Below, piece after piece: positions 939 through 44,846 of a stretch of 45,510 nt of DNA. A program made the position numbers and the translations under genes. The notes beneath the pieces were generated by a model. That model ran no database searches and was not told the origin of the DNA. It saw only the letters and a program-made list of their open reading frames with translations. Location: the IMG/VR virus record IMGVR_UViG_2778261177_000004, positions 1 to 45,510 of that record, one strand, 5' to 3'. Positions within the stretch are counted from its first letter, which is position 1. Every line of letters begins with the position of its first letter. Source of the stretch: a virus. Lineage: Duplodnaviria; Heunggongvirae; Uroviricota; Caudoviricetes.

Positions 939-3900
939 TTAATACCCATAAGCAACATACTGTGCATATACTTTATCAGTGGAGCTACTTTTTACTGTAA
1001 AACCAGTGGCTGAGTTGTTGTATGTATAAAGAATTGCATTAACAGCATTCCCGCTATTAGGTGAAATCACAACTACCGCACACGCCTCAGGAAAAGCAGT
1101 CGGAAATTTAACTACGCTTCCTGGAGTAACAGCCGCTATAATACCCCACTGCATCATCACCTTAGTTGATGTATCCTTATGCCATCCATGAATGTTGGCA
1201 TATGCTGTGTTTTTAGCCTGATATTTCGTGTTGAAATTACTATAGTTACCAGGGGTAATCTGACCAGCGGCAGATAAATTCCCCATAACCCTTACATGGC
1301 CATCAGCACGTCCTAATTCTACGCGACCATCACCGCCATCTATCTTTAATGGAGTGTAAACGACATCACCATTAACATTTTGCCCAGTGGTTGATATCTG
1401 GAAACTATATCCAGTATTAGTTATTAGGAATCCATAGTTATTATTATAAGTTAGGCGTATAGCATTTTGGCTGCTGGATATAATTTCACCGGTAACAGTA
1501 CCACCTGTTGTTGGTAACGCACCAACATGACTTGCCGTTAATGTGATATCTGCAGAACCATCAAAAGCCACGCCACTTATTTTTCTGGCAGTTTTTAACT
1601 TTGTAGCTGTAGCTGCATTGCCACTTGTATTTTGATTCCCGGCAATATTAACGCCCGGAAGATTGATGTTTGCTGAACCATCAAACGAAACCCCGCCTAT
1701 TGTGCGTGCTGTTTGCAGTTTTGTGGCAGTTGCAGCATTGCCGGTAGTGCTCTGATTGCCTGTTTTATTCACGCCCGGCAGGTCGATGTTTGCGGTGCCA
1801 TTAAATGAAACGCCACCAATGGTTCTTGCCGTTTGTAATTTCGTTGCAGACGCCGCGTTTCCAGTTGTGTTCTGGTTGCCTGTTGTATTTACACCAGGGA
1901 TGGAATCCTTCGATGTGTAGACCTGCGCCCACTCAGACCATGCAGCATCTGTTGAATCCCTGCGAGAGCGAATGAAAGCCGGTGCATGAGCACCACTAGT
2001 CCCACTCCAGCCAATGAGCAGCTCACCTTCACCAACGGCAGTAGATCCCTTCAGGTGAAGTAGATTCCCGTAAGTCGTGGGGTAACCATTGTTGTACACC
2101 TCATACATCTGCAATCCAGTGGTAGCACCTTGCGTTGTGCTGGTAAGCGCAGTAACACGCCCTCTGGACGTAATTGTTGGTATCGAAATGTTCGCAGAAC
2201 CATCAAACTTAACACCGTTGATTGTGCGGGCTGTTTGCAGTTTTGTAGCGGTTGCAGCATTACCTGTTGTGTTCTGGTTACCGGCAATGTTCACACCCGG
2301 CAGGTTGATATTGGCGGTGCCATCAAATGCCACCCCGCCGATTGTGCGTGCCGTCTGAAGTTTCGTTGCGGTTGCAGCATTACCGGTTGTGCTCTGATTA
2401 CCTGTTTTATTTACGCCTGGAAGATCGATATTGGCACTACCATCGAATGACACTCCGCCTATTGTGCGTGCTGTTTGCAGTTTTGTGGCAGTTGCAGCAT
2501 TGCCGGTAGTGCTCTGATTGCCTGTTTTATTCACGCCCGGCAGGTCGATGTTTGCGGTGCCATTAAATGAAACGCCACCAATGGTTCTTGCCGTTTGTAA
2601 TTTCGTTGCAGACGCCGCGTTTCCAGTTGTGTTCTGGTTGCCTGTTGTATTTACACCAGGGATGGAATCCTTCGATGTGTAGACCTGCGCCCACTCAGAC
2701 CATGCAGCATCTGTTGAATCCCTGCGAGAGCGAATGAAAGCCGGTGCATGAGCACCACTAGTCCCACTCCAGCCAATGAGCAGCTCACCTTCACCAACGG
2801 CAGTAGATCCCTTCAGGTGAAGTAGATTCCCGTAAGTCGTGGGGTAACCATTGTTGTACACCTCATACATCTGCAATCCAGTGGTAGCACCTTGCGTTGT
2901 GCTGGTAAGCGCAGTAACACGCCCTCTGGACGTAATTGTTGGTATCGAAATGTTCGCAGAACCATCAAACTTAACACCGTTGATTGTGCGGGCTGTTTGC
3001 AGTTTTGTAGCGGTTGCAGCATTACCTGTTGTGTTCTGGTTACCGGCAATGTTCACACCCGGCAGGTTGATATTAGCGGTGCCATCAAACGCCACTCCGC
3101 CAATTGTGCGTGCCGTTTGAAGTTTCGTTGCGGTTGCAGCATTGCCAGTAGTGCTCTGATTACCTGTTTTATTAACGCCCGGCAGGTCGATATTGGCGGT
3201 GCCATCAAATGCCACCCCGCCGATTGTGCGGGCTGTCTGAAGTTTCGTTGCGGTTGCGGCATTGCCGCTTGTGTTCTGGTTACCAGCAACGTTCACGCCT
3301 GGCAGGTTGATATCTGCCGAACCGTCAAATGCCACCCCGCCGATCTTGCGAGACGCCTGAAGTTTCGTTGCGGTTGCAGCATTACCGGTTGTGCTCTGAT
3401 TGCCTGCTTTATTCACGCCCGGCAGGTCGATATTGGCGGTGCCATCAAATGACACTCCGCCGATCGTTCGAGCTGTCTTGAGCTTTGTGGCAGTATCGGC
3501 GTTCCCGGTCAGCGTACCAGTAATCCCACCGCCAACTTTTACGCCGTTACCGATGGACACCAACCCAGTTCTTAAGTTTATAGAAAATGGTCTTAATGGC
3601 CCGATGTCACCATTTTCACCCTCCCCTTCATTTGTCGGGATAAGATGAAGATATTCCTCGGATCTCCTGAAGATAAGGCCAAAGGCCTGGTTAAATATTC
3701 GAAGGGCATTTATTGTGCCAATTTTTAGCTGCCCCCCCATTGTGTCGCCAGAACGCTGAACTGCGTTACCAGCTTGAGAAGCAATATCCGTTAAGCCAAG
3801 ATCTTCAGGGGTAAGAGTAATATCTGCCGAACCGTCAAATGCCACCCCGTTAATCTTTCTGGCTGTTTTTAATTTCGTCGCGGTATCGGCGTTCCCGGTC

Positions 3901-5210
3901 AGCGTACCAGTGATCCCCGCGCTGAAAGTCTGGCGTGCATTCCATGTGTTAGCCGTGCTCAACAGGGGGATTTTTTCACCGCTGGTACCGAGTTCTCTTA
4001 AACCAAGGTATTGGATAACAGCCAGAGTGCTTGTTTTAGCCAGAATATCGCGACCGACTGACGTTAAATCAGTCTGGGCTACAGTGTCTGTTCCGGTAAA
4101 GTACGGTAATTTATTTGCTCCCGTCGCCAGGCCAGCGAGCGCGGTTAAGGTTGCGTCGAGAGGCTGCTTACCTGCCAGGGCATTTGTCATTGTAGTCGCA
4201 AAGTTCGGGTCATTGCCCAGTGCTGCGGCAAGCTCATTCAGGGTATCAAGAGCTTCTGGTGATGAGCCGACCAATGCAGAAATAGCGGCACGAACATAAG
4301 CGGTTGTTGCAATCTGAGTGTTGTTCGTACCTTGTGACGCCGTAGGAGCTGTTGGAACCCCCGTAAATGCCGGGCTTAATAACGGCGCTTTAAGAGCTAA
4401 CGCATCATTAATCGTCTGGCTAAACTGGGGATCATTGTTTATTGCATCTGCAATTTTTTTCAGCGTATCCAACGCTGAAGGAGAACCATCAATAAGGGCG
4501 GTTATTGCGGCCTGAACAAAGGCAGTGTTTGCGATTTGTGTACTGTTTGTACCTTGTTCCGGAGTTGGAGATTTAGGTATACCAATAAACTCCGGGCTAT
4601 CAACCGGAGCTTTTAGTTTGTTTAACGTGCTGATAGCAAGAGGTGTTGCGGCTTTATATTCTTCGTCACTATCCAAAGCACTGGAAAACTCAACACCAAC
4701 AGCACGATTAGCACGATATTCAGTGCTAATCATATCTGCGGTAACGGCTTGAGCATTGTCAGGCACGATCACGCGGCATAGCTCAATCTGGTTAGATGCT
4801 ATTTCCTCATCAACGAGAGCAATAATTCTCGCTGCGCTAATATCCGATGAACTATCTACCTGGCTGGTTTTCACTCCATGTTCGTAATTAGCTTCAAGAA
4901 CGATGATTGTCGTTACACCAGCTTCTACAGGAACAAGAACATCACTGACTTGCTGCACGGATATCTGACATTTACCCACGTCAATTGAAGCCGCCCCTCT
5001 TCCCTCTGTTTTCTCGGATGTAATCCGCACAAACAGACCATCCCCTGGCACCGGTTCAAACCCACAGTACACTCCGGGCAGAACGATATTTTTCATCTTC
5101 CTGTTTAGAGCTTCGGTGCTATACAGCTCAAAGTATTGCATGTCTGCAATTAGTGGAGCGGAAATGTCCGAAGATAAGGTGACAATATTCTTTACTTTAT
5201 CTGCGCACAT
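939..5210 (-). CDS. long tail fiber protein (P1 S-like), 1423 aa, with internal repeats
   Basis: Very long ORF with about 40-aa repeats ([28 protein letters not shown]...) typical of phage tail fibers. It sits between baseplate genes and the Tfa gene. Confidence 0.8.
1693..3074 (-). repeat. tandem direct duplication of a 762-bp unit (copy A about 1693-2312, copy B about 2455-3074), embedded in a roughly 120-bp periodic repeat array spanning about 1560-3500
   Basis: Same sequence found at offset 762 (e.g. ccggtagtgctctgattgcc at 1741 and 2503); identical overlapping ORFs at 2051..2287 and 2813..3049 in the supplied track; a 254-aa block occurs twice in the tail fiber protein. Confidence 0.85.
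3993..4018. other. candidate site-specific invertase crossover site (hix/gix/cix-like 26-bp site) inside the tail fiber gene
   Basis: ttctcttaaaccaaggtattggataa matches hixL (TTCTTGAAAACCAAGGTTTTTGATAA, recalled from memory) at 21 of 26 positions including the AAACCAAGGT core. One half-site, TTATCCAATACC, is close to the Din-family consensus. Confidence 0.4.
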
Positions 5211-5775: not shown

Positions 5776-6618
5776 CTAAGGTGCAAAATTATAATCCAGC
5801 GCCCAGGCGTCGAGCGGGAGTTCATCGAGATGAAGCACTCTTTCCGTCGTCCGGTCTGGCCTTCCTGCGAACTGGATGCCGTCTAATTGAATGATCGTAT
5901 CGCTAATAGATAGTTCATCGACCATCTCTTGCGTCGTGTACACCCCCTCAATAAAGGACACTTCCGCAGATAAGCAATTCAAGATCTCCGCCATTTCCGG
6001 CAATGTTGCGCTCAACTGGAAAGAAACACCATCAAACACGATATGCAATGGCAATAGCGGCGCAATAACCGTATCAAAATCTGCAAGTAGCTTCTGTACA
6101 GCAACGTCTCTGTCCTCACCATCATAAGCTCGATACAGCTTATTTTGGTTGACGACAACCAGCCCTCTGGATGTCAGAAAAAACTCACCATATTGTGCCT
6201 GAGCGGTCGGTATTTCATTTGCAGTCGCGAAGAATGAACCATAGGGATGTTTTTCTGTATCGACAGGCGCATACAAAGGTTCCCATGAGACGGGGATTGT
6301 GCCAAATTCACGCCAGAACGTTTGCTCTATCGGCCTTACTGTTCCTTTGAAGTGCACCTCATCCAGTCGTTGAGCTAATAGCATTGGCCTGCGTGTTTTG
6401 TCCGTTTCTGTGATAACAAAGAAACGACCATATTCAGCAATGCGAGTGTCCATATCCTCGCTTGCCATTGTGAAAAACGATTTACGGTTGCTTATTCGCG
6501 TGAGAATAGGTTCAACCGATTCATTCCACACGTCCTGAATCGTATCAACAAAGGCGGCCCACAATTTAGAATCCTGTTTAAATTGCGTCAGACGCTCTTT
6601 TAGCCAGTTATTCTGCAT
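5776..6618 (-). CDS. baseplate protein (gpI / P1 gene 16-like position)
   Basis: 280-aa ORF between the gpJ-like gene and the tail fiber region; assignment by synteny only. Confidence 0.4.
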   Translation of the reverse strand: MQNNWLKERLTQFKQDSKLWAAFVDTIQDVWNESVEPILTRISNRKSFFTMASEDMDTRIAEYGRFFVITETDKTRRPMLLAQRLDEVHFKGTVRPIEQTFWREFGTIPVSWEPLYAPVDTEKHPYGSFFATANEIPTAQAQYGEFFLTSRGLVVVNQNKLYRAYDGEDRDVAVQKLLADFDTVIAPLLPLHIVFDGVSFQLSATLPEMAEILNCLSAEVSFIEGVYTTQEMVDELSISDTIIQLDGIQFAGRPDRTTERVLHLDELPLDAWALDYNFAP

Positions 6619-6627
6619 TGTGACCTC

Positions 6628-8058
6628 TTACGGATAGGTTATGCTGAACGTTGATGATTCCACGTCCAGATAAACAAAATCATTAAAGTACACAGCTTCT
6701 TTCATGTTCTGCGTAGCCACGTCATAAGACAGGAACATATCCAGCGATTCGATTACTCGCCAGATATCTTTTACTTTGACCTGTGCATAACATTGCTGTG
6801 AGTCGTCATCACTCTGCAATAGCTGGCTAAATGACATGGAGTCTTTACCGAAGTTCTCCTCCAGTGCCGCTTTAATTGCAGTTAGCGCGTCATCCACCAG
6901 CACACTCTTTTTTACGATACCGGTAAATTTGATGTTGAACGGCTGTTCATTGGTGGCGACGTATTCGAACTTCTTATTCAGCTCATTAGGGATACTCTCA
7001 AGGGCTGATAATATCTCTGTTTTCAGAGCTTCCTGTGTTACGCCGGGCTTATGCCCACAAAAGAAAATTTTGTTGATATTACGCACATCAAAGCCCGTTA
7101 TTTTCTCCTGTAGCGCCTCCCCCCACACGTTAAGCCATGACGTGCCACTGACCACGTTCTGAATGAACTGGCGGTAATCACCGCCCCAAACAACCTGCTC
7201 ATCGTAGGCCACATAATACTGCGCCCTGTTTCGGGTTTCCTCGGTAGTTTCCATGCCACCACCGCCAGAAATGATCGAATCGGTTTTTACTTCCAGTGAT
7301 TCGACATACCCGGAGATGTTCCCTGCTGGTTCAAGTTTCTGGCCTTCAGCCAGCGTGTAATCACCGAGGCTTGCCATAATATCAATGCGTACCTGACTCC
7401 CTGCCGCTGGCATCATCCCCATTGATCCATCACCGAAGCGCACGCCGATCTGTTCTGTCGGCTTATAAACCAACACATAATGTTTACTGTTATCCCTGGA
7501 CATGCGGAATAGGGGGTTATGTGTCCATTTTTCCTCGACACCATTAGTTATCACGACAACTTCCAGGCTGGCGACTTCTGCTGTTAACTCACGGGAAAGT
7601 AACAACGTCAGGAATGGTGTTTCTTGCACCACGTCGAACGTTATGCTGACTGCTTCATGCTGTTTTACTTCTATTCCGGATACTGTTTCACCAGCAGGGA
7701 TAACAACACTACTGCTGGTTGCAATTGGTGTCTGGTCACTTGTCAGTAATTCAGCCCCTCCGGGTAGCGTAATATCCCTGTCGGTTTTGTTGGTGATGGA
7801 AACAGTGCCGTATGACGCATCGACCAAACGACCGACATAGCCACGGTCTTCCGCTGCCGCGAGAATACTTGCTCTGCGCGTCGCGGTGGAAATGAATCCT
7901 TCTGTAAGTGCACGGCTTGCAAATGTACGCGCAATATAAACAATCTGCGCGCCCAAAACGGACTGCATTTGAATAAACTGGCTGTTTACAAATCGCGCCC
8001 ACCAGGGGTTTTCGTTCAGCTTGGCATTAAACTTGTCCAGTAATTCGGTAATACTCAC
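6628..8058 (-). CDS. baseplate wedge protein (gpJ / gp6-like; P1 bplA position)
   Basis: 476-aa ORF immediately downstream of, and overlapping, the gp25-like gene, as in P2 W-J and T4 25-6 arrangements. Confidence 0.5.
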   Translation of the reverse strand: MSITELLDKFNAKLNENPWWARFVNSQFIQMQSVLGAQIVYIARTFASRALTEGFISTATRRASILAAAEDRGYVGRLVDASYGTVSITNKTDRDITLPGGAELLTSDQTPIATSSSVVIPAGETVSGIEVKQHEAVSITFDVVQETPFLTLLLSRELTAEVASLEVVVITNGVEEKWTHNPLFRMSRDNSKHYVLVYKPTEQIGVRFGDGSMGMMPAAGSQVRIDIMASLGDYTLAEGQKLEPAGNISGYVESLEVKTDSIISGGGGMETTEETRNRAQYYVAYDEQVVWGGDYRQFIQNVVSGTSWLNVWGEALQEKITGFDVRNINKIFFCGHKPGVTQEALKTEILSALESIPNELNKKFEYVATNEQPFNIKFTGIVKKSVLVDDALTAIKAALEENFGKDSMSFSQLLQSDDDSQQCYAQVKVKDIWRVIESLDMFLSYDVATQNMKEAVYFNDFVYLDVESSTFSITYP

Positions 8059-12352: not shown

Positions 12353-13174
12353 TTAATAATGGTTAGCCATCCATTCAGATCTAATTGATGGGATAAACTC
12401 TCTATTGAGAAATGGGGCGTACAGCGTGGTAGTCACGTCTGCACCCTCCTTAGCGTTTTTGCAGCGTTGTGGCGGTAGGATCAGGCGGCTTGTGCCTCGT
12501 TCAATAGCCATTTTTAAGCCGTGGCGAAGGTCTTTCTGCATGAGCTGAATGCGAGCTACCAGAGGGGTAAACTCGGTTTCCAGTGCCATGTTTTCAATGA
12601 TATCGAATCGTCTGTTTGCAGCTTGTGTGAAGTCTTCTGGATCGTCGTTCAGAGATGTACACAAGGCCAACTCAGCTATGCGGAGACGAGCAACCTCAGC
12701 ACTGTACTCTGGAGTTTTCATATCAGGCAAAGTGGCGCGCATACGTTCAAGCAATTCAGCGCCTTTCCCTGTTAGTGGTTTAAGCGTCCACTCGGTTGGT
12801 ACTCCGTTTATAGGGACCATAGTTTTAATAAACGGCGGGACAGTCAGGATTTCTACCGTTTCGGCAAGGTCTGAAAGGTTAATATCTGCGTGATGAACGT
12901 TTCCACAGTGACCACACTCATATGAGTAAGTCATGACGGCATCAGGCCTGGAATTAACAAAGATCCACCAAAGCGCGGTTCTGCGATCCTGAACTGTCCA
13001 GTTTGAGCTGTCGTTAATTTCGCCGTCTTGCATAGCGTTGAGGTATTCTGTTGTGGTTGCCTCGTCTTCTGCCGGATTGATGTCTGAATATTTCAAGGCA
13101 TCTTTCACAGTAGGTGCATGAAACTGAATTTCTATTTCAGGCTGTGAAGGCAATGGGAATTTGGGAATGTTCAA
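12353..13174 (-). CDS. hypothetical virion-associated protein (contains a CGHCG motif)
   Basis: 273-aa ORF at the head of the minus-strand baseplate operon. Confidence 0.4.
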   Translation of the reverse strand: MNIPKFPLPSQPEIEIQFHAPTVKDALKYSDINPAEDEATTTEYLNAMQDGEINDSSNWTVQDRRTALWWIFVNSRPDAVMTYSYECGHCGNVHHADINLSDLAETVEILTVPPFIKTMVPINGVPTEWTLKPLTGKGAELLERMRATLPDMKTPEYSAEVARLRIAELALCTSLNDDPEDFTQAANRRFDIIENMALETEFTPLVARIQLMQKDLRHGLKMAIERGTSRLILPPQRCKNAKEGADVTTTLYAPFLNREFIPSIRSEWMANHY

Positions 13175-13314
13175 GGATTCCTCCGAAAGCTAGGTTCAGT
13201 TAGTTTTTCAGAGGATAGGGAGTGTGTGATTTGTGGGAGTATTGAATAAGGATCTTTGTCGATCGAACAGCAACTATTGAGGGTGATTTTTACACCTTAA
13301 GTGACGCAATTCAC

Positions 13315-13323
13315 ATATCCACA
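13315..13323. promoter_or_regulatory. candidate DnaA box (ATATCCACA) within an AT-rich origin region
   Basis: One mismatch to TTATCCACA. It sits next to an AT-rich tract, GATC sites and an inverted iteron-like element (13279-13296) upstream of the iteron array. Confidence 0.35.
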
Positions 13324-13418
13324 GAGTATTTTTATAAACCTTTTTCTCTTTTTAATCCTTTTTAGATCCTTTTTAGGCATCGTGGAGGCCAGGTGTGGCG
13401 GGGCTTGTAGAGGACCAA

Positions 13419-13536
13419 GGTGTAAGATTTGCCCTCAATTAAGCTATTGAGGTGTAAGATTTGCCCTCAGCAGGTGTAAGATTTGCCCTCAAAAGGTGTA
13501 GTAATTGCCCTCAAAGTGATGTAAAAATTGCCCTCA
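13419..13536 (+). repeat. iteron array upstream of repA (5 direct 19-bp repeats, GGTGTAAGATTTGCCCTCA and variants); origin / autoregulatory site
   Basis: Repeats at 13419-13437, 13451-13469, 13473-13491, 13495-13513 and 13518-13536. Confidence 0.85.
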
Positions 13537-13560
13537 CCATTTGAAGGATCACACAGGGTT

Positions 13561-14316
13561 ATGAACAGAGCGGAATTAACGGCAAAAGCCGTCAGTCTGA
13601 TTGAATCAGCGACACCAATTAGCCGTAGCTTGGCGCAGGCCAATGAGATCACAGAGGCGGCTTATCACCTGACACGCGACCAAAAGCGACTGTTGTTTAT
13701 TGTGGTGGGAAGACTTCGCTATGCTTCTAAGGATGGCGTTCTTGGTTCAGGTGCCTGTGAGTTGACGGTCAACGAATATGCAGAGATGTATAATTTGCCC
13801 TCTGCTGAAGCCAGCAAGGATATTCGTAAAGCTATCTCCGGACTTAGTGAGAAGAAAGTCACGATATATAACCCTGATGAATCAACCGAATCAGAAGACA
13901 GTTATGAGTCTTATCCCTGGATGATTAAGGAGGCTTACTCACCACGCCGGGGGACTTACATTATTCATCTGAATCCATATCTCATGCCGTTTTTTACTCT
14001 GCTTGATAAGAGGTTCACGAGGCTGAATTTTACTGAAGTGTCTCGCCTGACAAACCCTTATTCTATGCGGCTTTATGAGTCCTTATGCCAGTATAGAAAG
14101 GATGATGGGAGCGGCTTCGCTATACTTGGCGTTGAATGGATGCGGGAGCGTTATGGTCTTCCCAAAAGCTATCAACGGTACGCCGAATTTAAGAGAAGCT
14201 TTCTGGCAAAAGCTGTAGCTGAAATCGAAAAAAACACAAAAATGAAAATAGTTTTCTCAGAGGTTACAGAAGGTGGCAGAGTTACAAAAATAAAATTCAC
14301 CTATCAGCAGTCTTAA
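13561..14316 (+). CDS. repA: replication initiator RepA (Rep_3 / RepE-like, iteron-binding)
   Basis: 251-aa protein flanked by iterons. Start chosen at the ATG at 13561 rather than the track start, which lies inside iteron 5. Context matches iteron plasmid replicons. Confidence 0.8.
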   Translation: MNRAELTAKAVSLIESATPISRSLAQANEITEAAYHLTRDQKRLLFIVVGRLRYASKDGVLGSGACELTVNEYAEMYNLPSAEASKDIRKAISGLSEKKVTIYNPDESTESEDSYESYPWMIKEAYSPRRGTYIIHLNPYLMPFFTLLDKRFTRLNFTEVSRLTNPYSMRLYESLCQYRKDDGSGFAILGVEWMRERYGLPKSYQRYAEFKRSFLAKAVAEIEKNTKMKIVFSEVTEGGRVTKIKFTYQQS

Positions 14317-14605
14317 GGGCAATTTCTACACCTCTCTGTAGGTGTAGGATTTGCCCTTAAAGATGGGAGATTGAGGGCAATTCTTACATTATTAGTTAGT
14401 TGGTTGGATCTTTAACGGCTAACATTATTTGTAATTTATTGATTAATAAGGAATGTGTAAAAATCACCCTCAGATGGCATCGTATGCTATAGCTATTCTT
14501 ATCGCACTACTGTTGAATGTTTTATGGTTGTAACGCGTTGATTTTGTTGTGATGTGTAAAAAATGCCATCATTGACGTAAACAGCAGGTGTAGATATTGC
14601 CCTCA
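14316..14605. repeat. downstream iteron cluster (incA-like copy-control locus) with direct and inverted iteron copies
   Basis: Iteron-like elements at about 14316-14332 (inverted), 14341-14359, 14373-14390 (inverted), 14454-14472, 14551-14571 and 14587-14605. Confidence 0.65.
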
Positions 14606-14647
14606 AGTTTGCCCCTTCCCCACCTTCTCGCACTTTAATACTGCATT

Positions 14648-15385
14648 TCAAAACTTGATCACGTTGCTGGCGGCGCTTTTAAGTGCGCTTGTTGCTAAAC
14701 CAGCAGCTCCATTGACTAATGCGGACAGGCCGGAACCAGCAGATGTGTATCGCTGGAACGTGATCGGATAGGACAAGAATTCGGACACCTGATCACGTGA
14801 GCGGCTGATCTCTCCTATCTGAGTCGGAAATACACGCATTTCCTCTTCCAGCTCTTTCCCGCCTTCCTGTGTAACGCGGTATAGCCTGATATTCATGAGA
14901 TAATCTGGCGGCAGGTTTAGCGTACCATCGCTATTGGTTACACGGGCGCGGCGCTCCTTGAACCAATTCATTATTTTGCCGTCTTCTGTGTCTCTGACCG
15001 TCATTGTTACCGGTCCGGCGGTTACGTGCGTTGGCTTATTGAACTCGACGCTACCAATGATTTTGCTTTCTGTTTCAATATTCCCGCTACTGTAAGTGAT
15101 GTCCTTAACGAACATATCAAAGCCGTTTAATCCGTCTACGTCTACCGTCCACTGCCAGCCCTGGGCATAGCGGATACGCATAGCCGTAGCAACTACGTTC
15201 TTTCCGTAAGCGATGTCATTGCCGTAGCTCCCGCTAACGCCACTGCCAGACAACGCTCTATCCAGAATGTCGCTGATAAGGTTGCTGGTGAACGATTTCG
15301 CGTTAAACGATACCGCACTGGCTAGCGTTTGCGTTGTAGCACTAAAAATACTCACGTAGCCCTCCGTGTTAAAAAATGGTAGCAC
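14648..15385 (-). CDS. hypothetical tail/virion protein
   Basis: 245-aa ORF in the minus-strand structural operon. Confidence 0.4.
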   Translation of the reverse strand: MLPFFNTEGYVSIFSATTQTLASAVSFNAKSFTSNLISDILDRALSGSGVSGSYGNDIAYGKNVVATAMRIRYAQGWQWTVDVDGLNGFDMFVKDITYSSGNIETESKIIGSVEFNKPTHVTAGPVTMTVRDTEDGKIMNWFKERRARVTNSDGTLNLPPDYLMNIRLYRVTQEGGKELEEEMRVFPTQIGEISRSRDQVSEFLSYPITFQRYTSAGSGLSALVNGAAGLATSALKSAASNVIKF

Positions 15386-24767: not shown

Positions 24768-25727
24768 ATGATGCGCATTTTTATCGACGATGGTTCTACC
24801 AATATCAAAATGCTGTGGGAACAAGACGGGGAAACTCGAACCCATATCTGTCCGAACAGTTTTAAACGTGGATGGTCCGCCACATTTGGCGCAGGAAAGC
24901 CGTTTAACTACATCATTGATGACGAAAAATATTCATATGACTTGATTTCGCCGGATGTGCTGCCGACGAATAATGTGGAATGGCAATACAGCCCGCTTAA
25001 TGTGCTTGCTGTTCATCATGCCCTGCTTACAAGTGGCATTGAGCCTCAAGAAGTGGAAATAGTTGTCACGTTGCCACTGGCAGAGTTTTATGACGACGAC
25101 GCACAATACAACATGAAAAATATTGAGCGGAAAAAGGCCAGCCTGATGCGACCAGTCACCCTTAACAAAGGTCAGGTTTTTACTATCAAAAAAGTGACTG
25201 TGCGCCCGGAGTCAATACCCGCAGGGATCGGTCTGTGCGACAGCCTTGTGCCAGCGCATTCTGTGCTTATTGTTGATCTTGGTGGGACTACTCTGGATGT
25301 GTCGATGGTCGCCGGGCAAATGACCGCCGTTTCTCGCGTATTTGGCGATTCTAATCTCGGCGTTTCGCTGGTAACTAAAGAGGTCAGACAGGCACTTGCA
25401 AAAGCGAATACCGAAACCTCTAATTATAATGTCGATCAATTAATCATTAATCGTGATGATGAGGATTATTTGACCGACAATATTAACGATCCGTCTGCTA
25501 TTGATGATGTTAAGAAAGCCATTTCGTCAAGCATAGAACGACTCCGTACACGCGTACTGGATGTGATCAGTGATTTCAAAGGATACACGCATGTTATGGT
25601 CATTGGTGGCGGCGCGCCGCTTGTTGCTGATGCTATCCGTGAGCAGGTAAACATTCGTGACGATAGGTTTTTCGTTGCTGATGATCCACAACTTGCTCTT
25701 GTCTATGGTCTAAAATCTATCGGTTGA
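24768..25727 (+). CDS. parM: plasmid segregation actin-like ATPase ParM (StbA)
   Basis: Alignable along its whole length with R1 ParM (recalled from memory), e.g. MMRIFIDDGSTNIK, NVLAVHHALLTSG, MPESIPAG, DLGGTTLD, GDSNLGVSLVT, GYTHVMVIGGGA. Confidence 0.85.
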   Translation: MMRIFIDDGSTNIKMLWEQDGETRTHICPNSFKRGWSATFGAGKPFNYIIDDEKYSYDLISPDVLPTNNVEWQYSPLNVLAVHHALLTSGIEPQEVEIVVTLPLAEFYDDDAQYNMKNIERKKASLMRPVTLNKGQVFTIKKVTVRPESIPAGIGLCDSLVPAHSVLIVDLGGTTLDVSMVAGQMTAVSRVFGDSNLGVSLVTKEVRQALAKANTETSNYNVDQLIINRDDEDYLTDNINDPSAIDDVKKAISSSIERLRTRVLDVISDFKGYTHVMVIGGGAPLVADAIREQVNIRDDRFFVADDPQLALVYGLKSIG

Positions 25728-25737
25728 TGAGGTTGCC

Positions 25738-26103
25738 ATGTCTCAGGAACGTCGAAAAGTATTGTTTTATCTTCGTCCTGGTCTTAACGCCAGTGAGCAA
25801 TATGCTGATGCAAAACTTGAGGGCCATCCATTAAGAGATCGCAATGATATGGCGCGCACAGCGATGCTTGCAGGTATCGCTCTTGGCGAGGTTGATAGCA
25901 GATTACCTCCCATGTTGGCATCGCTTTTATCCGGTGATAATAGCCCTGAAGTGATCAGAAAAATGCTGGTTTCATTTCTTGAAATTTCGCCTGAAGTTCG
26001 GGAAAACCCTGAAGGAAACCCCTCTGCTTCAGCGGATGTTAAAAAACCTGGCGTTTCGAAAAGCCGCTCTGCACAGAATTTGGCAAACTCACTCCCTGAT
26101 TAA
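25738..26103 (+). CDS. parR: ParR-like centromere-binding adaptor (StbB)
   Basis: 121-aa ORF immediately after parM, with an RBS and a terminator after its stop. Confidence 0.55.
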   Translation: MSQERRKVLFYLRPGLNASEQYADAKLEGHPLRDRNDMARTAMLAGIALGEVDSRLPPMLASLLSGDNSPEVIRKMLVSFLEISPEVRENPEGNPSASADVKKPGVSKSRSAQNLANSLPD

Positions 26104-26118
26104 CAAATCTACATCTTC

Positions 26119-26146
26119 AAAGGCTGCAATTTGCAGCCTTTTTTAT
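26119..26146 (+). terminator. rho-independent terminator after parR
   Basis: Hairpin ggctgcaa/ttgcagcc followed by a T6 run. Confidence 0.55.
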
Positions 26147-26149
26147 ACT

Positions 26150-26380
26150 GTTATGGTTCTAACTTGGTGTTCTTTTAGTACCAAAACGGTGTTGTTATGG
26201 TGCTGTTTTGTGTCTGGTTCCACTTTGAGGCTGATTTCGTGTTAAACAGGATGCAAGAGAGGGTAAATTTAGAGTGTTTAGTGTTATACTTTTGCAAAGC
26301 ATAGTGACTCCACTATAGAGCCAAAACCGCATCAAGAAGGCTTCTGTTTGGAACCAGTTTGATACCAAAATAACACCGAG
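26150..26380. repeat. centromere-like repeats upstream of parA (GTACCAAAACGGTGTT family), mirrored downstream of parG at about 27325-27400
   Basis: agtaccaaaacggtgtt (26186-26202), gataccaaaataacaccg (about 26352-26370), aacaccgttttggttcc (27329-27345, inverted) and agtaccagaatggtgtt (27381-27397). Confidence 0.4.
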
Positions 26381-26388
26381 GAACGGAT

Positions 26389-27030
26389 ATGATTATATTG
26401 GTAGTCAGCCAAAAAGGTGGCTGTGGAAAATCAACCACAAGCGTAAACATCTGTGCGGAGCTTGCCCGCGAAAATAAGGATGTAGTGTTACTGGATGCAG
26501 ACAAGCAAGGAACAGCTGCCCGCTGGGCAGCTGACCGTAACACGGCAGAGGTTTCTCCTGTAATTCATTGTGTCCAGAAGTTTGGTAATATTCGAGAAAC
26601 ACTTCTCGATCTGGATAAGCGTTATGAATTTGTAGTTGTTGATACAGCCGGGCGCGATAGCAAAGAGATGCGTACAGGCATAACCGCTGCAGATATTGTG
26701 TTGGTCCCATTCAGACCATCTCAACCAGATTTAGACACGCTGGCACACTTTGTTGAAGTGTTTGAAGAGGCTTTGGACCTGATGCCTAATCCTAGCATTA
26801 AGGCGTTCGCAGTCTTAACAATGGCCCCATCCAATCCGGTTGTGAATGAAACCAATGAGGCCAAAGAGTACCTAGCTGAATATCCGCAACTGAAGTTGCT
26901 GAAAACCATCATTCGTGATCGTAAGGTTTACCGCGATTGCATGGCTGAAGGGAAGGGCGTTGTTGAGATGGACAACGGGAAAGCTAAAGGTGAAATCCAG
27001 ATGTTGGTTAAGGAGTTATTAAGTGATTAA
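26389..27030 (+). CDS. parA: partition ATPase ParA (small ParF-like Walker-type)
   Basis: Deviant Walker A motif KGGCGKST; C-terminal KAKGEIQMLVKELL resembles the ParF C-terminus; 213 aa. Confidence 0.8.
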   Translation: MIILVVSQKGGCGKSTTSVNICAELARENKDVVLLDADKQGTAARWAADRNTAEVSPVIHCVQKFGNIRETLLDLDKRYEFVVVDTAGRDSKEMRTGITAADIVLVPFRPSQPDLDTLAHFVEVFEEALDLMPNPSIKAFAVLTMAPSNPVVNETNEAKEYLAEYPQLKLLKTIIRDRKVYRDCMAEGKGVVEMDNGKAKGEIQMLVKELLSD

Positions 27031-36359: not shown

Positions 36360-36552
36360 AACAGTTCCTCACAGTCATAACCTGGGGGAAACTGTATACA
36401 GGGTGTGAAATGCGAGAAACAGACAGGCCACCAGTTCAGGGGGATGTGGTTCATAAATCCCCTCATTGGTGACAAGTGACTTTCATTAATCTTTATGCGG
36501 GGGCCAGCTTCATTTGCTGGCATTAGATTAAAAATTAAACGGAGTGAATGAC

Positions 36553-38734: not shown

Positions 38735-39352
38735 TCATTTTTGTCGGATCTTTTCCAGCATATTTAATTCATTATCACTTTCTGCTGCTGAGACGGTTGG
38801 CCTCACATTTCCGAAATATTTCCTGTGAGACTCATGACTTATGTATTCACCGACAGTTTCATTCTTGAATATACGAATTTGACATATGCGAGATCCAACA
38901 ATAAGTTCCACAGGGCTATTCCCATGATTAAATAACTCTAAAGATATACAGCCTCTGTACCCTGGTTGTATCATGGTATTTAATGAAAGACCAAGCCTTG
39001 TATAGCTGCTTCTGGACAATACATCAGCGTAGCAATCTGGTGGCAAACAAACATATTCTAATGTTGTTGCCAGTACCACTTGATTCGGGTAAACAATGAA
39101 TCTATCCCCAAGATCTCTCCTTGTTTCCTGGAAAAATGTTCTGATTGGTTGATGAGTATCATTGTTTTTAGAGGGAATTAACTCTATTGACGGCTTCCTT
39201 GTCATAATAGACACTAAAAAATCGTAACCAAGTCTAAGGTCTATGGTGAAGTTCCCAATTTGGTTTTTATTTAGAAGAGGTTCAATGAACAACGATTCAG
39301 GTTCTTCTGATTCATAATATTGCAGTAATTCAGCTTTGCTTAGGAGATTCAT
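38735..39352 (-). CDS. dCTP deaminase (Dcd/dUTPase-fold) family protein
   Basis: Collinear similarity to E. coli Dcd (recalled from memory): IDLRLGYDF; SRSSYTRLGL versus GRSSLARLGL; IQPGYRGCISLELFNHGNSPVELIVGSRICQIRIF versus [34 protein letters not shown]. ATGA start/stop overlap with the upstream gene. AT-rich. Confidence 0.7.
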   Translation of the reverse strand: MNLLSKAELLQYYESEEPESLFIEPLLNKNQIGNFTIDLRLGYDFLVSIMTRKPSIELIPSKNNDTHQPIRTFFQETRRDLGDRFIVYPNQVVLATTLEYVCLPPDCYADVLSRSSYTRLGLSLNTMIQPGYRGCISLELFNHGNSPVELIVGSRICQIRIFKNETVGEYISHESHRKYFGNVRPTVSAAESDNELNMLEKIRQK

Positions 39353-40434
39353 TGTGCATTCCATTTTTCAAGAATCATTACGTTTCGAATCGATTTTTCA
39401 ACCAAATCATTTATAGTTTTTTCTATGGCTTCTTTTGACAACCCAGACCATATACCCGTAGGTTTTTCCCATTCAGAGCATAAGTACTGCCAGCTGCTGT
39501 TAATAAAAGCATGCATTTCATTGTGGTCGCGAATAACAAAAGGACGCACATTATCAAAAGCTGATTTCACATCAAGCAAAGGTGTCGGCAATGTCAAACA
39601 AGGAGAAATAATTTGCCCACCCTTATGTAAGGCTGATATCACAGCATTGAACATGCCAATAACTGGATTTTCCACTTTGTTCAAAAAGTCGCTTACAACT
39701 TTAACCCTGTTTTCTGTTGATGGGTGAGTTTCGCTTGCAGGATGAGAACCAGCTAATTTGTATAAGAAATCCACACCGCTTTCCCCTACAAATTGCGCAC
39801 TGAAAAGATCTGCAAAATACTCCCTACAGTGATTCAGCCAAATAACATCAGGTAATTTAGACCACTCAATACCTTTATGTGGCACAGGAAGCGTACCTTG
39901 ATTAATAGAACGAAAGTTTAGATTGGCAAGCTCAGAAATACCTTTGCTAATATCAACAAAGTGGCCCAACTCGTGATATAAAGGTGTTGAGCACAATGGT
40001 CGTCTTCGGTACATTTCAGGTAATGAAATCTGAATTAATTCGATATCGCATTTAACATGTAAAATTTCATTAAGTAAAGTGTAGAAATTCTTACTTACAG
40101 ACTTAAAATAAAACCCATTCATATCTGGCGATAGAGCCGTTGTAATAAGTGTTTTTTCACTTATCCATTTTTTACAGGCATCATTTAAGCAATAAACAAT
40201 CTCGTAGGGAATTTTCTTTGTAGTACTGCCAGTGAAAAAATTAACTGCATCGGTGATAAAAAAAGTACAATCAGCAATTATTTCATCGGCAACCTTCTCA
40301 TGGTTTTCATATAGCTTATCTGCTGCTTCTTGTAGAACAGCGAGATATTCATGCATGTCTTTAGAAAAATAGGGAGATTCTGAAATCTCCCTTAGCTTAT
40401 TTCGAACTAATGTAAGTTGTGTAAATGCAAGCAT
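39349..40434 (-). CDS. HExxH zinc metallopeptidase-like protein (ImmA/IrrE-like signature)
   Basis: 361 aa with LYHELGHFVD followed about 45 aa later by EYFADLFSAQF, resembling the ImmA/IrrE HExxH...E..AN.FA pattern; TAATG overlap with the upstream gene; AT-rich. Confidence 0.5.
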   Translation of the reverse strand: MLAFTQLTLVRNKLREISESPYFSKDMHEYLAVLQEAADKLYENHEKVADEIIADCTFFITDAVNFFTGSTTKKIPYEIVYCLNDACKKWISEKTLITTALSPDMNGFYFKSVSKNFYTLLNEILHVKCDIELIQISLPEMYRRRPLCSTPLYHELGHFVDISKGISELANLNFRSINQGTLPVPHKGIEWSKLPDVIWLNHCREYFADLFSAQFVGESGVDFLYKLAGSHPASETHPSTENRVKVVSDFLNKVENPVIGMFNAVISALHKGGQIISPCLTLPTPLLDVKSAFDNVRPFVIRDHNEMHAFINSSWQYLCSEWEKPTGIWSGLSKEAIEKTINDLVEKSIRNVMILEKWNAQ

Positions 40435-41418: not shown

Positions 41419-42360
41419 TTAACTAACAATCCAGTCGGTCGCTGCTACATCTTCTGGCTGTAAATCAATCGCACAGATTTTGCCGTCGCGAATGGTGCGC
41501 CAGTTTTTCCGTGAGCCTCTTTCGGGCCATACCCAGACACTTTCAGGCCAGGATGCTCGACGGCATACGGTTGCATACCCTGTTTTAATCTTCTCTCTGG
41601 CGGTATGCAACGACAGGTTTGCCTTTGGACTTTCAGGCACAGGATGGTGAATGGCCTGAAATAGCCCCATCCTGGGATGATACCAGCGTTTGTTACGTGG
41701 TTCTGCCTCCGACATAACCTGCTTAAAGGCTTTCCGGAAGGGGGCCAGGGCCACAATGGAGCGTCTCGCGAGCAAACCATCGGGAGTTAAAAACTCATGT
41801 GTATCGGTGGGAATCCGATACGCATTGACCAGGTTACGGCATTTGGCTTCAGTCAGGCCGCATTTTGCCGCTAACTGGCGGTAGCTAATGTAGCCTTCCG
41901 GAATATTGCCTTTCTTTATTTGCTCGACGGTTTCAGCGACTTTGGACACTTGTGCCGATACTTCGGCTACCTGGGCATTAACGGCGTTGATCCGGCGTTC
42001 ATGCTCAAGATGCATTTGCGCCATTTCGGCCAAGATTTCGGCTTTTGATTTTAACGGTCCCCTGGCATTCTCCAGTTCGCGCCAGCGGTCCACCAGCCGG
42101 GCGGTGAATTCGGGAGAGAGCTGCGCGACGACAATGATGCTATCGCGCTTGCCTTGTTCGCCTTCAAAGATGTAAGCCTTGGAAAATCGACGAGGGCCAA
42201 CTGATTGTTTATTTTCAATTTCCTCAATTTGAGGAAATTGAATGACACCACCTTTAGTTAATACTTCAATGGTACGCTTCACATTATCATGACGCTTACC
42301 TACCAGTTCCGCGATCTCAATACTGGTCATTGTCGCTTTTTGAGAGATGGACAGATTCAT
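41419..42360 (-). CDS. ant: antirepressor (Rha/Ant-like N-terminal domain)
   Basis: 313 aa; N-terminal MTSIEIAELVGKRHDNVKRTIE is typical of the Rha/antirepressor family; translationally coupled (TGATG) to the upstream small ORF, as in P1 icd-ant. Confidence 0.65.
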   Translation of the reverse strand: MNLSISQKATMTSIEIAELVGKRHDNVKRTIEVLTKGGVIQFPQIEEIENKQSVGPRRFSKAYIFEGEQGKRDSIIVVAQLSPEFTARLVDRWRELENARGPLKSKAEILAEMAQMHLEHERRINAVNAQVAEVSAQVSKVAETVEQIKKGNIPEGYISYRQLAAKCGLTEAKCRNLVNAYRIPTDTHEFLTPDGLLARRSIVALAPFRKAFKQVMSEAEPRNKRWYHPRMGLFQAIHHPVPESPKANLSLHTAREKIKTGYATVCRRASWPESVWVWPERGSRKNWRTIRDGKICAIDLQPEDVAATDWIVS

Positions 42361-42575
42361 CAGTGCACCTCCACGCAGTTCATTGGCAGATTCCAGTAAT
42401 TGAGGATCTCCATCGCATCAAGAGTGAAGCGAGCAGCAAAAATGCAGGGTTCTTCGGGAAGGTATGAGCGCGCCTCTGCTTCGGTAGCAGCCATTACGCA
42501 GATATAGAGGTGTTTTTGGCAGGAATAGAAACGCCAGATAAATTCAGAATGAGTTGGGGTAGGGATAGTAGCCAT
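42360..42575 (-). CDS. small protein coupled to ant (Icd-like position)
   Basis: 71 aa, AAGGAGG RBS, stop overlaps the ant start codon; the architecture parallels P1 immI (c4-icd-ant). Confidence 0.4.
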   Translation of the reverse strand: MATIPTPTHSEFIWRFYSCQKHLYICVMAATEAEARSYLPEEPCIFAARFTLDAMEILNYWNLPMNCVEVH

Positions 42576-42589
42576 ATTGGCAGCCTCCT

Positions 42590-42700
42590 TTGACTAAGTT
42601 AAGGAGCTACCGCGTGAGGTTCCAATCTCAATGGCGGTAGCACTGACTGGGTTGGAACTACCGGCGTCAAAGGGAACCGGCCTGCCTTTCGGCAGCCCAG
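42590..42700 (-). ncRNA. candidate c4-like antisense/regulatory RNA leader upstream of the icd-like ORF
   Basis: Hairpin gctaccgc...gcggtagc with a 20-nt loop plus complementary GTTCCAA/TTGGAAC segments, directly upstream of the icd-like RBS. Purely structural inference. Confidence 0.25.
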
Positions 42701-42888
42701 CCAGCACTACCATTGATCTCTGAGCTAAACGCTAAGTATGGCTGTGCGATGGCATGACACAAAAAAAGACGCGTTCGGCGTCTGTGTCGCCTTTGACATT
42801 ATCCGGGGTTCCAATCCCGGCACCCGTTTTTCTAAGGTGCCGTAGAAATATACCCCACGATAATGCCAGGGCGCAACTGTGTGTTTTC

Positions 42889-44235: not shown

Positions 44236-44846
44236 TGTCAAAACGCATTATGAAAATTTACATCGCGGGTCCGATGACTGGTTATCCCGACTACAACCGC
44301 ACAGCGTTTTTTTCGAAAGCAAAAGAGCTGATGGAGGTAGGGCATATTGTTCTGAATCCGGCGCTGTTACCTGCTGGCCTCTGCGAGAGCGAATACATGG
44401 ATATTTGCCTTGCAATGGTGCGTTCGGCTAATGCGGTCTATTTGCTCAAGGGGTGGGAGGAATCAGTTGGCGCTCGTGCAGAGCACGAGCTGGCTCAAAA
44501 GCTGGGGCTGAATGTAATTTATGAGTCACCAACCAACATTGAATGCCAGGTTGCTCCGCATATTTACCGGGAACTGGTCAATGCACTACGTGATATCGCT
44601 GCTGTATATCACGGCACAGAACAGCTTCGTGAGCGTTTAGCCCATACCATTTCCTATTACCTGTCTGCATCTCATGAGCACAAGCTCCGTCAGAAGGTAA
44701 TGATCAAATTTATCATGAGGTTATCGAAATCCCTGGCAAGCGCCGATCCAAAGAATCCATTACCGAAAGAGGCAATGAATTACCTGAAGTCCTGCAACGT
44801 TGTTTCTGAAGATGGCGTTCTTTTGGTTAGAAGGAGTTCTGCGTGA
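44235..44846 (+). CDS. hypothetical protein with an N-terminal nucleoside 2-deoxyribosyltransferase-like (DUF4406-like) motif
   Basis: MKIYIAGPMTGYPDYNRTAFF...HIVLNPA resembles the IYIAGPMTG signature of DUF4406-type proteins; GGGGAA RBS. Confidence 0.45.
   Translation: MSKRIMKIYIAGPMTGYPDYNRTAFFSKAKELMEVGHIVLNPALLPAGLCESEYMDICLAMVRSANAVYLLKGWEESVGARAEHELAQKLGLNVIYESPTNIECQVAPHIYRELVNALRDIAAVYHGTEQLRERLAHTISYYLSASHEHKLRQKVMIKFIMRLSKSLASADPKNPLPKEAMNYLKSCNVVSEDGVLLVRRSSA

Follow-up and report, generated by a model that had tools for sequence, protein, structure and literature searches.

What is a plasmid replicon doing among the tail genes of a phage? The question arises from the stretch of DNA analysed here, the window, which is 45.5 kb long, belongs to a D6-like (P1-g2) phage-plasmid and covers about half of the whole element. 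In it, an array of virion genes occupies 21 kb of the minus strand, and the replicon is the only plus-strand unit within this array. Its gene repA is transcribed from the plus strand, its two neighbours from the minus strand. They lie outside the replicon: on the left a homologue of pmgB (12353-13174; 41% identity to P1 PmgB by blastx, the D6 equivalent being annotated as PmgB-like), on the right a homologue of the tail tube gene tub (14648-15355; 44% identity to P1 Tub by blastx, annotated in D6 and CP104667). A preliminary description of this DNA had placed a replicon on the opposite strand inside the virion operons and had called the surrounding genes, e.g., ref, P1-like. Both statements hold: ref, S, R, 16, bplA, pmgA, pmgB, tub, pmgC and others share 40-57% of their amino acids with the P1 proteins.

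Very likely, the unit is the low-copy plasmid-prophage maintenance replicon (oriR type) of a D6-like phage-plasmid, theta-type and iteron-controlled, a member of the Rep_3 family and homologous to ori2/repE/incC of mini-F. It is real and almost certainly functional. The replicon is already known from the GenBank annotation of D6, from Pfeifer 2021 and from the paper on pYU39_89 (PMC6799933), and nothing reported here is unexpected to a specialist. D6 (NC_050154) is a plaque-forming phage that is kept as a circular plasmid. The D6 counterpart of RepA is orf42, “replication initiation protein” (45841-46596), and the gene is annotated there as a putative plasmid replication initiator. In the D6-like pYU39_89, a repB with iterons has been noted (PMC6799933).

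The repA gene (13561-14316) encodes a Rep_3 initiator of 251 amino acids with the domains WH1 and WH2. Its ATG is at 13561, in agreement with how the homologous gene is annotated by NCBI and in D6. With the family defined by Pfam PF01051 and PF21205 and the gathering thresholds as cutoffs, WH1 is recognised as Rep3_N (2.3e-29; 103 bits vs. a cutoff of 22.4) and WH2 as Rep3_C (2.7e-15; 56.8 vs. 21.1 bits). RepA is 50% identical to mini-F RepE over 228 residues and finds the RepE chains in PDB, including RepE-iteron structures, with an E value of about 1e-73. It misses, however, the equivalog cutoff of NCBIfam NF010305 (RepE) with 281.4 vs. 342 bits, which implies that details of RepE regulation, e.g., repression by dimers at an operator, are not simply transferable. 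The initiators of pSC101, pPS10 and R6K (pi) belong to the same WH1+WH2 fold family, but are much more distant in sequence; pi and pPS10 RepA are weak PDB matches (3.6e-6 and 4.6e-4, respectively). To P1 RepA there is no significant BLASTP similarity (best E value 0.056 over 32 residues), as the preliminary description had suspected. P1 RepA, too, belongs to Rep_3, if only distantly (Rep3_N, 25.7 bits).

A repeat search also detected an iteron-like site of uncertain function within repA (GATGTATAATTTGCCCTCT; 13785-13803, plus strand; codons M-Y-N-L-P-S). Its codons are identical in the window, D6 and the related loci L008, L010 and L022. The idea of a universally conserved site had to be dismissed: it is missing from L006, a relative with 78% identity.

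Reading towards repA from upstream, one meets tandem DnaA boxes, then an AT-rich tract, then five direct iterons of 19 bp; a DnaA-box-like site, the tract and the five iterons had been listed before. Two DnaA-box-like 9-mers, CAATTCACA and ATATCCACA, abut at 13307-13323 (plus strand) and resemble the tandem boxes of F ori2 in their arrangement. The box at 13315-13323 matches in eight of nine positions, the adjoining one at 13307-13315 is weaker. The core ATCCAC is invariant in an alignment of five diverged replicons, i.e., those of the window, L006, L008, L010 and F ori2. The AT-rich tract (13324-13375), a candidate DNA-unwinding element, contains T-runs and one GATC (13365); the GC content falls to 0.27 at 13310-13369. 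The tract is conserved across D6-like elements, and its blocks can be aligned one by one with those of the AT-rich region in F ori2. A clustering of GATC as in P1 oriR is absent, with one GATC vs. five in the P1 origin. The iteron array (13419-13536, plus strand) has copies at 13419-13437, 13451-13469, 13473-13491, 13495-13513 and 13518-13536, spaced by 32, 22, 22 and 23 bp, and ends 24 nt before the ATG of repA. Its 19-mer GGTGTAAGATTTGCCCTCA is matched seven times with at most three mismatches, vs. 0.02 matches expected from shuffles. The same layout recurs in L006, L008, L010 and L022, and phased iterons beside the rep gene, flanked by a DnaA box and an AT-rich region, are what characterises Rep_3 replicons. 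Beyond the DnaA boxes and the AT-rich tract, a solitary inverted iteron (13278-13296; GGTGTAAAAATCACCCTCA on the minus strand) emerged from the repeat search. It is invariant among the clean aligned D6-like sequences; only the low-quality record MK356557 deviates, lacking one nucleotide. A conserved 23-mer lies at 13209-13231.

The placement of the repA promoter is a matter of conjecture, since a sigma-70 scan of 13100-14750 revealed no consensus plus-strand promoter upstream of the gene. The promoter is presumed to lie inside the origin iteron array; in P1 it is annotated inside the iterons. The only promoter-like match in the scanned region is on the minus strand (14461-14433) and overlaps an iteron. 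On neither strand did a terminator scan of the same region find a convincing intrinsic terminator.

Downstream, repA is followed by six further iterons, some direct and some inverted, which bears out the second cluster of direct and inverted copies seen earlier. The first one (14314-14332, minus strand) overlaps the stop codon of repA and stands head to head with the second (14341-14359, plus strand). The pair (14313-14360) is an inverted repeat with arms of 21 nt that are 90% complementary; folded as RNA, it gives a hairpin of -37.6 kcal/mol (z = -5.1). All relatives, F repE included, have kept an inverted iteron abutting the rep stop codon. The third copy (14372-14390, minus strand) is conserved in D6. 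The other three are on the plus strand: TGTGTAAAAATCACCCTCA at 14454-14472, a conservation island within a diverged spacer, the degenerate TGTGTAAAAAATGCCATCA at 14553-14571, and GGTGTAGATATTGCCCTCA at 14587-14605, the latter two identified by repeat search and comparison with D6. Two IHF consensus sites on the minus strand, AATCAATAAATTA at 14432-14444 and AATCAACGCGTTA at 14531-14543, lie 9 bp from the iterons at 14454 and 14553, respectively. They are the only two WATCAANNNNTTR matches in the window, and both are still consensus matches in D6, even though the spacer around the first one has diverged. Across the window, neither the IHF sites nor the DnaA boxes (9 found vs. 10.4 expected) exceed chance in number, so that it is position and conservation that speak for both. 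With the Pfam domains and both iteron clusters in place, the preliminary diagnosis of an iteron-type Rep_3 replicon with origin and copy-control layout is supported.

The nearest characterised replicon, not named in the preliminary description, is RepFIA of mini-F (ori2, repE, incC; NC_002483, 48.1-49.5 kb; RepE structures 1REP and 2Z9O). Its elements follow one another in the same order as in the window, beginning with the tandem DnaA boxes and the AT-rich tract with GATC; direct iterons phased at about 22 bp come next, then the rep gene, the inverted iteron abutting its stop codon and a control cluster. Moreover, ori2 can be aligned block by block, comprising the DnaA boxes, TATTTTTAT, the T-runs, a GC spacer and iterons that share the TTGCCCTCA half-site. 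The two replicons nevertheless differ. The window has five origin iterons, F has four. The F-type iteron TGTGACAAATTGCCCTCA was not recovered, its 5' half being different and shifted by 1 nt, with the TGT half-site of the window one base nearer to TTGCCCTCA. The inverted TGTGACAA operator of the repE promoter is absent between the iterons and repA of the window. The last iteron is 24 nt from the rep gene, in F about 100 nt. The downstream cluster of the window is of mixed orientation, and sopABC is not adjacent.

With oriR of P1 (incC, repA, incA; IncY) the replicon shares the DnaA box, the AT-rich tract, five origin iterons that extend as far as the rep gene, and another iteron cluster downstream for copy control; both elements are phage-plasmids of the P1 family. 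The iteron sequence is different, however, and so is the location. In P1, oriR and repA lie between gene 23/parBA and upfA, beside the par genes, and only 14 bp separate pmgB from tub within a single late operon. Neither significant pairwise similarity to P1 RepA, nor P1-type iterons, nor the 23/parBA-upfA slot was found in the window; in IncY plasmids RepA is about 72-73% identical to P1 RepA (PMC10999674). The closer kin of this replicon, though diverged, is F RepFIA and not P1 IncY.

Relative to P1, the replicon unit of 1.47 kb is an insertion between pmgB and tub. It might therefore be thought that this particular element has recently acquired a foreign replicon in the midst of its tail operon, which would make the arrangement unusual within its own family. 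The replicon core is indeed closer to D6 (91-98% identity) than the flanking virion genes (71-85%), a difference that might stem from recombination having homogenised the module later on. Yet the order pmgB, rep, tub is also that of D6 and of six PLSDB plasmids looked at in detail (L002, L012-L016), and it is kept in all 17 further loci from genomes and IMG/VR with RepA at least 98% identical. No D6-like element sharing the virion genes at more than 70% nucleotide identity was seen among them in which pmgB directly adjoins tub and the replicon lies elsewhere. Pfeifer 2021 had already described that 14 persistent genes separate replication from partition in P1-g2. The window complies: the replicon is in the pmgB/tub slot on the opposite strand, and the partition genes are about 14 genes away. 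A recent mosaic event is, therefore, highly improbable. The comparison of synteny that the preliminary description had proposed has, as far as P1 and D6 are concerned, a clear outcome, the slot being shared with D6 and absent in P1. The placement is a fixed arrangement of the D6-like (P1-g2) clade, not a peculiarity of the window, and its occurrence across D6-like elements implies that it is ancestral to the whole clade.

The likeness to D6 extends to the DNA, with 90.7% identity over 13204-14389. The iterons have identical or nearly identical counterparts in the same places, the gene order pmgB, rep, tub is shared, and in D6, too, the ParM partition module stands apart from the replicon. On the downstream side the two differ: identity drops to about 63-66% in the spacers of the control cluster (14390-14650), and a D6 segment of about 60 bp beside tub is missing from the window. 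The divergence of these spacers and of the virion genes marks the window as a minor sub-lineage; a match of at least 95% to the replicon region is reached by only 6 of the 112 PLSDB hits. The 112 hits, all of which carry the replicon, are circular plasmids of Escherichia, Salmonella and Shigella with a size of roughly 90 kb, and 109 of them are non-mobilizable. As to the replicon typing that had also been suggested, MOB-suite calls this replicon rep_cluster_1704. The PlasmidFinder type p0111 was considered for the D6 replicon and rejected, because p0111 and IncY have been assigned to P1-g1 elements (Pfeifer 2021; Salmonella survey).

A replicon of this kind could also be a decaying or silent remnant, the element being maintained by another origin. 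About half of the element is outside the window and might harbour a second rep gene, and one relative, CP091837, is additionally typed as IncFIA by MOB-suite. The pattern of conservation argues against decay. RepA is 98.4% identical to D6 orf42; the reading frame is intact, and 55 synonymous codon differences from D6 stand against 4 nonsynonymous ones, which indicates strong purifying selection. While the spacers drift, the iterons are conserved: among seven D6-like elements, 94% of the upstream iteron columns are invariant vs. 65% of the spacer columns, and downstream 55% vs. 25% (Fisher p = 6e-8). In five of the six PLSDB records opened, CP091837 being the sixth, rep_cluster_1704 is the sole replicon type; no other plasmid initiator is annotated in the D6 stretch examined, and pYU39_89 has only repB plus a separate lytic repL (PMC6799933). 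We thus give hardly any credence to a remnant. Just as improbable is a lytic (vegetative) origin, which the embedding in late virion operons, with late transcription possibly crossing the unit, might suggest, since iteron-bearing Rep_3 replicons that possess a second control cluster serve maintenance at limited copy number (F, P1 oriR) and P1-type elements use repL/oriL lytically, as the separate repL of pYU39_89 illustrates.

How would the maintenance replicon work? By analogy with F and P1, RepA monomers are expected to bind the five phased iterons (13419-13536) and, together with host DnaA at the tandem boxes (13307-13323), to open the AT-rich tract (13324-13375) for the loading of DnaB. 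RepA on the proximal iterons would probably also repress the repA promoter, as in P1, because only 24 nt separate the array from the start codon and an F-type operator is missing. Copy control and incompatibility may reside in the six iterons downstream of repA together with the solitary inverted one upstream, a locus comparable to incC of F and incA of P1 that would act by titration of RepA and handcuffing of origins; two IHF-induced bends may help. Segregation would be handled separately. The partner maintenance function of the replicon is a ParM/ParR-type pair about 10.5 kb away (24771-26103, plus strand), consisting of parM (24771-25727) and a stbB/parR-like gene (25738-26103); it is recognised by Pfam StbA_N (2e-69), the ParM C-terminal domain (9e-56) and Plasmid_stab_B (3e-14) and annotated as partition proteins in D6. 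A ParA-like P-loop ATPase (26389-27030, plus strand; Pfam matches to AAA_31, CbiA, MipZ and ParA) possibly provides a second partition function.

The replicon determines in which hosts, and beside which co-resident plasmids, a prophage of a D6-type phage-plasmid can persist. Such elements are found widely in E. coli, Salmonella and Shigella, and resistance genes occur on some phage-plasmids. From the kinship to F RepFIA rather than P1 IncY, compatibility with P1/P7-type prophages is predicted; the same kinship raises the question of cross-talk with F-type plasmids. These consequences for incompatibility and host range are what we infer.

Relatives of RepA with 57-78% identity and the same iterons occupy two further positions in P1-like elements and are also found on ordinary plasmids, which backs the modular exchange of replicons postulated at the outset. 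The same initiator clade is found on Pantoea/Erwinia plasmids. It thereby offers a concrete case of the published conclusion that plasmids and phage-plasmids exchange replication modules. Two further candidates, P0056 and P0062, were discarded as phage-plasmid contexts; they are F-like plasmids with ccdAB-resD-repE-sop. One may go further and see in the stretch 13309-14330, comprising DnaA boxes, AT tract, iterons, repA and the first inverted iteron, a portable basic replicon of about 1.0 kb that landed at no fewer than three loci of the P1 family, moves to and from ordinary plasmids, and whose antisense placement in the D6 clade could be functional. If so, head-on late transcription through the origin would switch off plasmid-mode replication upon lytic induction, and during lysogeny RepA-bound iterons plus the 21-bp iteron palindrome could roadblock read-through and insulate pmgB-sit. 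Taken as a whole, this extended reading is rather unlikely, though less so than the rival explanations discussed above.

Late transcription was addressed with a position weight matrix built from 10 annotated P1 late promoters. Scanning the window with it detected nothing near the replicon, and low-threshold matches were no commoner than in shuffles. One strong match in the window is located at 36474-36492.

The virion genes of the window (485-21736, U to gene 23) form one co-directional block on the minus strand, with repA as the sole plus-strand gene therein. The homologues of P1 genes, at 40-57% identity by blastx against P1 proteins, follow each other as U, S, R, 16, bplA, pmgA, (sit), pmgB, [repA], tub, pmgC, bplB, pmgG, 21, 22, 23, upfB and upfC, and then ref. 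In P1, a gap of 14 bp separates pmgB (44492-45373) from tub (45388-45999) within a late operon driven by LPsit, and oriR, repA and incA reside at another slot, between gene 23/parBA and upfA. Compared with P1, therefore, the 1,473 bp that lie between tub and pmgB in the window are inserted, and they carry a complete replicon. The preliminary description, which had proposed a Rep_3-type replicon on the opposite strand amid tail and other virion genes, with P1-like neighbours such as ref, is thus borne out. The sim/c4/ant/repL block, found between pmgC and bplB in P1, is missing in the window, and the replicon is the only interruption of 485-21736. The homologue of the tail-fibre gene S (939-5210, minus strand) encodes 1423 aa versus 987 aa in P1; its internal repeats, between 1544 and 3922, show 120-nt and 642/762-nt periodicity.

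The repA gene starts with an ATG at 13561, stops at 14314-14316 and encodes 251 amino acids with the Pfam domains Rep3_N (2.3e-29) and Rep3_C (2.7e-15). Its closest characterised relative is RepE of mini-F, with 50% identity across 228 residues; PDB chains of RepE (1REP, 2Z9O and others) are hit with E of about 1e-73. With 281 bits, RepA stays below the NCBIfam cutoff for RepE equivalogs (342 bits), which is why the RefSeq label 'RepB family' is generic. As had been suspected, RepA does not resemble P1 RepA: BLASTP between the two yielded nothing significant (E 0.056 over 32 residues). P1 RepA weakly matches Rep3_N (25.7 bits), and the two proteins are therefore members of one superfamily.

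Over 13204-14389, the replicon region shares 90.7% identity with Escherichia phage D6; with three E. coli plasmids of ~90 kb, its identity reaches 99.7%. The flanking virion genes share just 71-85% identity with D6, and PLSDB contains no identical record, the best match being 97.7% over 89% of a 25-kb probe. Within the D6-like (P1-g2) group, the window thus falls into a minor sub-lineage. In PLSDB the replicon has 112 carriers (89 Escherichia, 16 Salmonella, 6 Shigella and 1 Pantoea), 109 of them non-mobilizable; the replicon type was rep_cluster_1704 in all six records inspected. A 76-kb D6-like plasmid (NZ_CP091837.1) is typed by MOB-suite as 'IncFIA, rep_cluster_1704'; the IncFIA label may stem from the D6-type replicon itself or from a second replicon.

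The iteron is a 19-mer, GGTGTAAGATTTGCCCTCA, with 7 matches at ≤3 mismatches versus 0.02 expected; the full set was obtained with a repeat finder and a looser motif. Five direct iterons on the plus strand, spaced by 32, 22, 22 and 23 bp, make up the origin array (13419-13536), which ends 24 nt before the repA ATG. One inverted copy lies upstream (13278-13296, minus strand). Between it and the array are two abutting DnaA-box-like 9-mers (13307-13323) and an AT-rich tract (13310-13369, 27% GC). The window as a whole has no excess of such 9-mers (9 versus 10.4 expected); the putative DnaA-box element is supported by its position and conservation, and the counts contribute nothing. Six more iterons follow downstream, at 14314 (-), 14341 (+), 14372 (-), 14454 (+), 14553 (+) and 14587 (+). 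The predicted layout of five upstream iterons with AT-rich tract and DnaA-box-like site, plus a second cluster in both orientations, is accordingly present in full. The head-to-head pair at the repA stop (14313-14360) is predicted to fold into an RNA hairpin of -37.6 kcal/mol (z = -5.1); no T-run follows on either strand, and it is therefore no canonical terminator. A repA promoter could not be placed with confidence. The IHF consensus WATCAANNNNTTR has just two matches in the 45.5-kb window (14432-14444 and 14531-14543, both minus strand). Both fall within the downstream cluster, each 9 bp from an iteron, and both still match the consensus in D6. They are 99 bp apart, each inside a longer repeat of ~45 bp that contains an iteron.

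Alignment with F ori2 and three diverged relatives shows that the origin itself is, on sequence grounds, homologous to F ori2. In this order, both have tandem DnaA boxes, TATTTTTAT, T-runs that include a GATC, a GC-rich spacer, iterons with a common TTGCCCTCA half-site, the rep gene and, directly at the stop codon of that gene, an inverted iteron. The window has five origin iterons, F has four, and the TGT half-site is one base nearer to TTGCCCTCA than in F. Unlike F, this replicon lacks the inverted half-iteron operator between iterons and rep gene, its downstream cluster is of mixed orientation, and no sop locus is adjacent. Partition is instead represented, about 10.5 kb off, by ParM/ParR (24771-26103, plus strand; the ParR-like protein is Plasmid_stab_B) and a separate ParA-like P-loop ATPase (26389-27030, plus strand), two partition-type functions that adjoin each other at 24771-27030.

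Anatomy, homology and conservation are observed here; how the replicon works we infer by homology with F and P1. The AT-rich tract would be opened jointly by DnaA at its boxes and RepA monomers on the phased array of five iterons, and the helicase would be loaded there for theta replication. Occupation of the promoter-proximal iterons by RepA would repress repA. The downstream iterons, possibly also the upstream inverted one, would limit copy number by titration and handcuffing, a control that IHF bends may assist.

A protein search yielded a graded series of RepA relatives, whose contexts were inspected. In a P1-like element (L006, L007; RepA 78% identical), the replicon lies between the ddrB side and ulx-darB. 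In L008 (72%), an element whose proteins share 62-77% identity with P1, it occupies the canonical P1 oriR slot, mlp/upf to gene 23, and in a P1-like element of Erwinia aeris (L022, NZ_JBGFFX010000017, 6148-7169; 61%) it likewise uses the oriR slot, here between upfC and gene 23. Relatives at 57-64% reside on ordinary plasmids: a 73-kb Nissabacter plasmid (L010), a 399-kb Pantoea megaplasmid (L021, pAPP145_3) and a ParAB/KorB contig (L017). The iteron consensus is identical across these relatives, and five or six iterons abut the rep gene. Nucleotide homology among the diverged replicons is limited to a segment of ~1.0 kb bounded by the DnaA boxes and the first inverted iteron (13309-14330 in the window). 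Neighbour joining places RepA of the Erwinia phage-plasmid with those of Pantoea plasmids (93-94% amino-acid identity) and unites the window/D6, L006 and L008 proteins in a separate clade. At the DNA level, L022 repA is ~80% identical to its L021 and L017 counterparts; this exemplifies how plasmids and phage-plasmids share replicons. In the P1 family at large the module has moved, as the suggestion of modular exchange implied. Within the D6 clade its placement is ancient and fixed, since all 17 further loci with RepA of at least 98% identity (GTDB and IMG/VR) keep the order pmgB, rep, tub.

An alignment of seven D6-like replicons took in, besides those of the window and D6, five plasmid replicons of E. 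coli, E. marmotae and Salmonella. Invariant columns make up 55% of the iterons versus 25% of the spacers downstream of repA (Fisher p = 6e-8), and 94% versus 65% upstream of it. Pairwise with D6, the downstream spacers are ~63-66% identical, with every iteron still in place, and repA differs by 55 synonymous and 4 nonsynonymous codons. We present this conservation pattern and the codon differences as comparative evidence arguing for a functional replicon. An iteron-like 19-mer also occurs within repA (13785-13803, plus strand; codons M-Y-N-L-P-S). These codons, synonymous positions included, are the same in window, D6, L008, L010 (57%) and L022; as background, identity throughout the four-lineage set of window, L006, L008 and L010 is limited to 11 of 112 conserved degenerate codons. 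The site was looked for in L006 and is absent.

That the replicon is there is correct, yet already known: D6 GenBank annotates the homologous gene, likewise between pmgB and tub, as 'replication initiation protein; similar to P1 gene repA?; pfam01051; putative plasmid replication initiation'. Replication and partition are co-localised in P1-g1 and 14 persistent genes apart in P1-g2, and IncY and p0111 were assigned to P1-g1 (Pfeifer et al. 2021, PMC7969092). Replication and partition genes are often transferred between plasmids and phage-plasmids (Pfeifer and Rocha 2024, PMC10879196). Our additions are incremental: we make the homology with F ori2 explicit, delimit the cassette that the replicons share and give examples of this Rep clade in other genomic positions.

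A unique 23-mer, AATCACACACTCCCTATCCTCTG, at 13209-13231 (minus strand), 35-58 nt upstream of pmgB (12353-13174, minus strand), is invariant in six of seven D6-like elements, with variable neighbouring positions. It may be a promoter or regulatory site for pmgB-sit, now split from tub (14648-15355, minus strand) by the replicon; the P1 late-promoter PWM has no match near the replicon, this 23-mer included. Between the last iteron and the stop codon of tub, D6 and most relatives have a palindromic segment of ~60 bp (…GGGTGCTGACGGG…CCCTCCAGCACACA…), which is absent from the window's sub-lineage (14606-14650 versus about 13410-13495 in the D6 locus L001); in L006, the downstream iterons come with related CTGGAGGGAA/TTCCCTCCAG palindromes. 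Elsewhere, Rfam matches to C4 antisense RNA (42630-42717, 77 bits) and the isrK sRNA family (42762-42840, 61 bits), both on the minus strand, adjoin an icd homologue (42378-42554); this stretch is a P1 immI-type immunity region. The part of the window that is not P1-like includes, on the minus strand, a dCTP deaminase-like gene (38735-39364) and a Rha-family regulator with an HTH domain (41419-42360).
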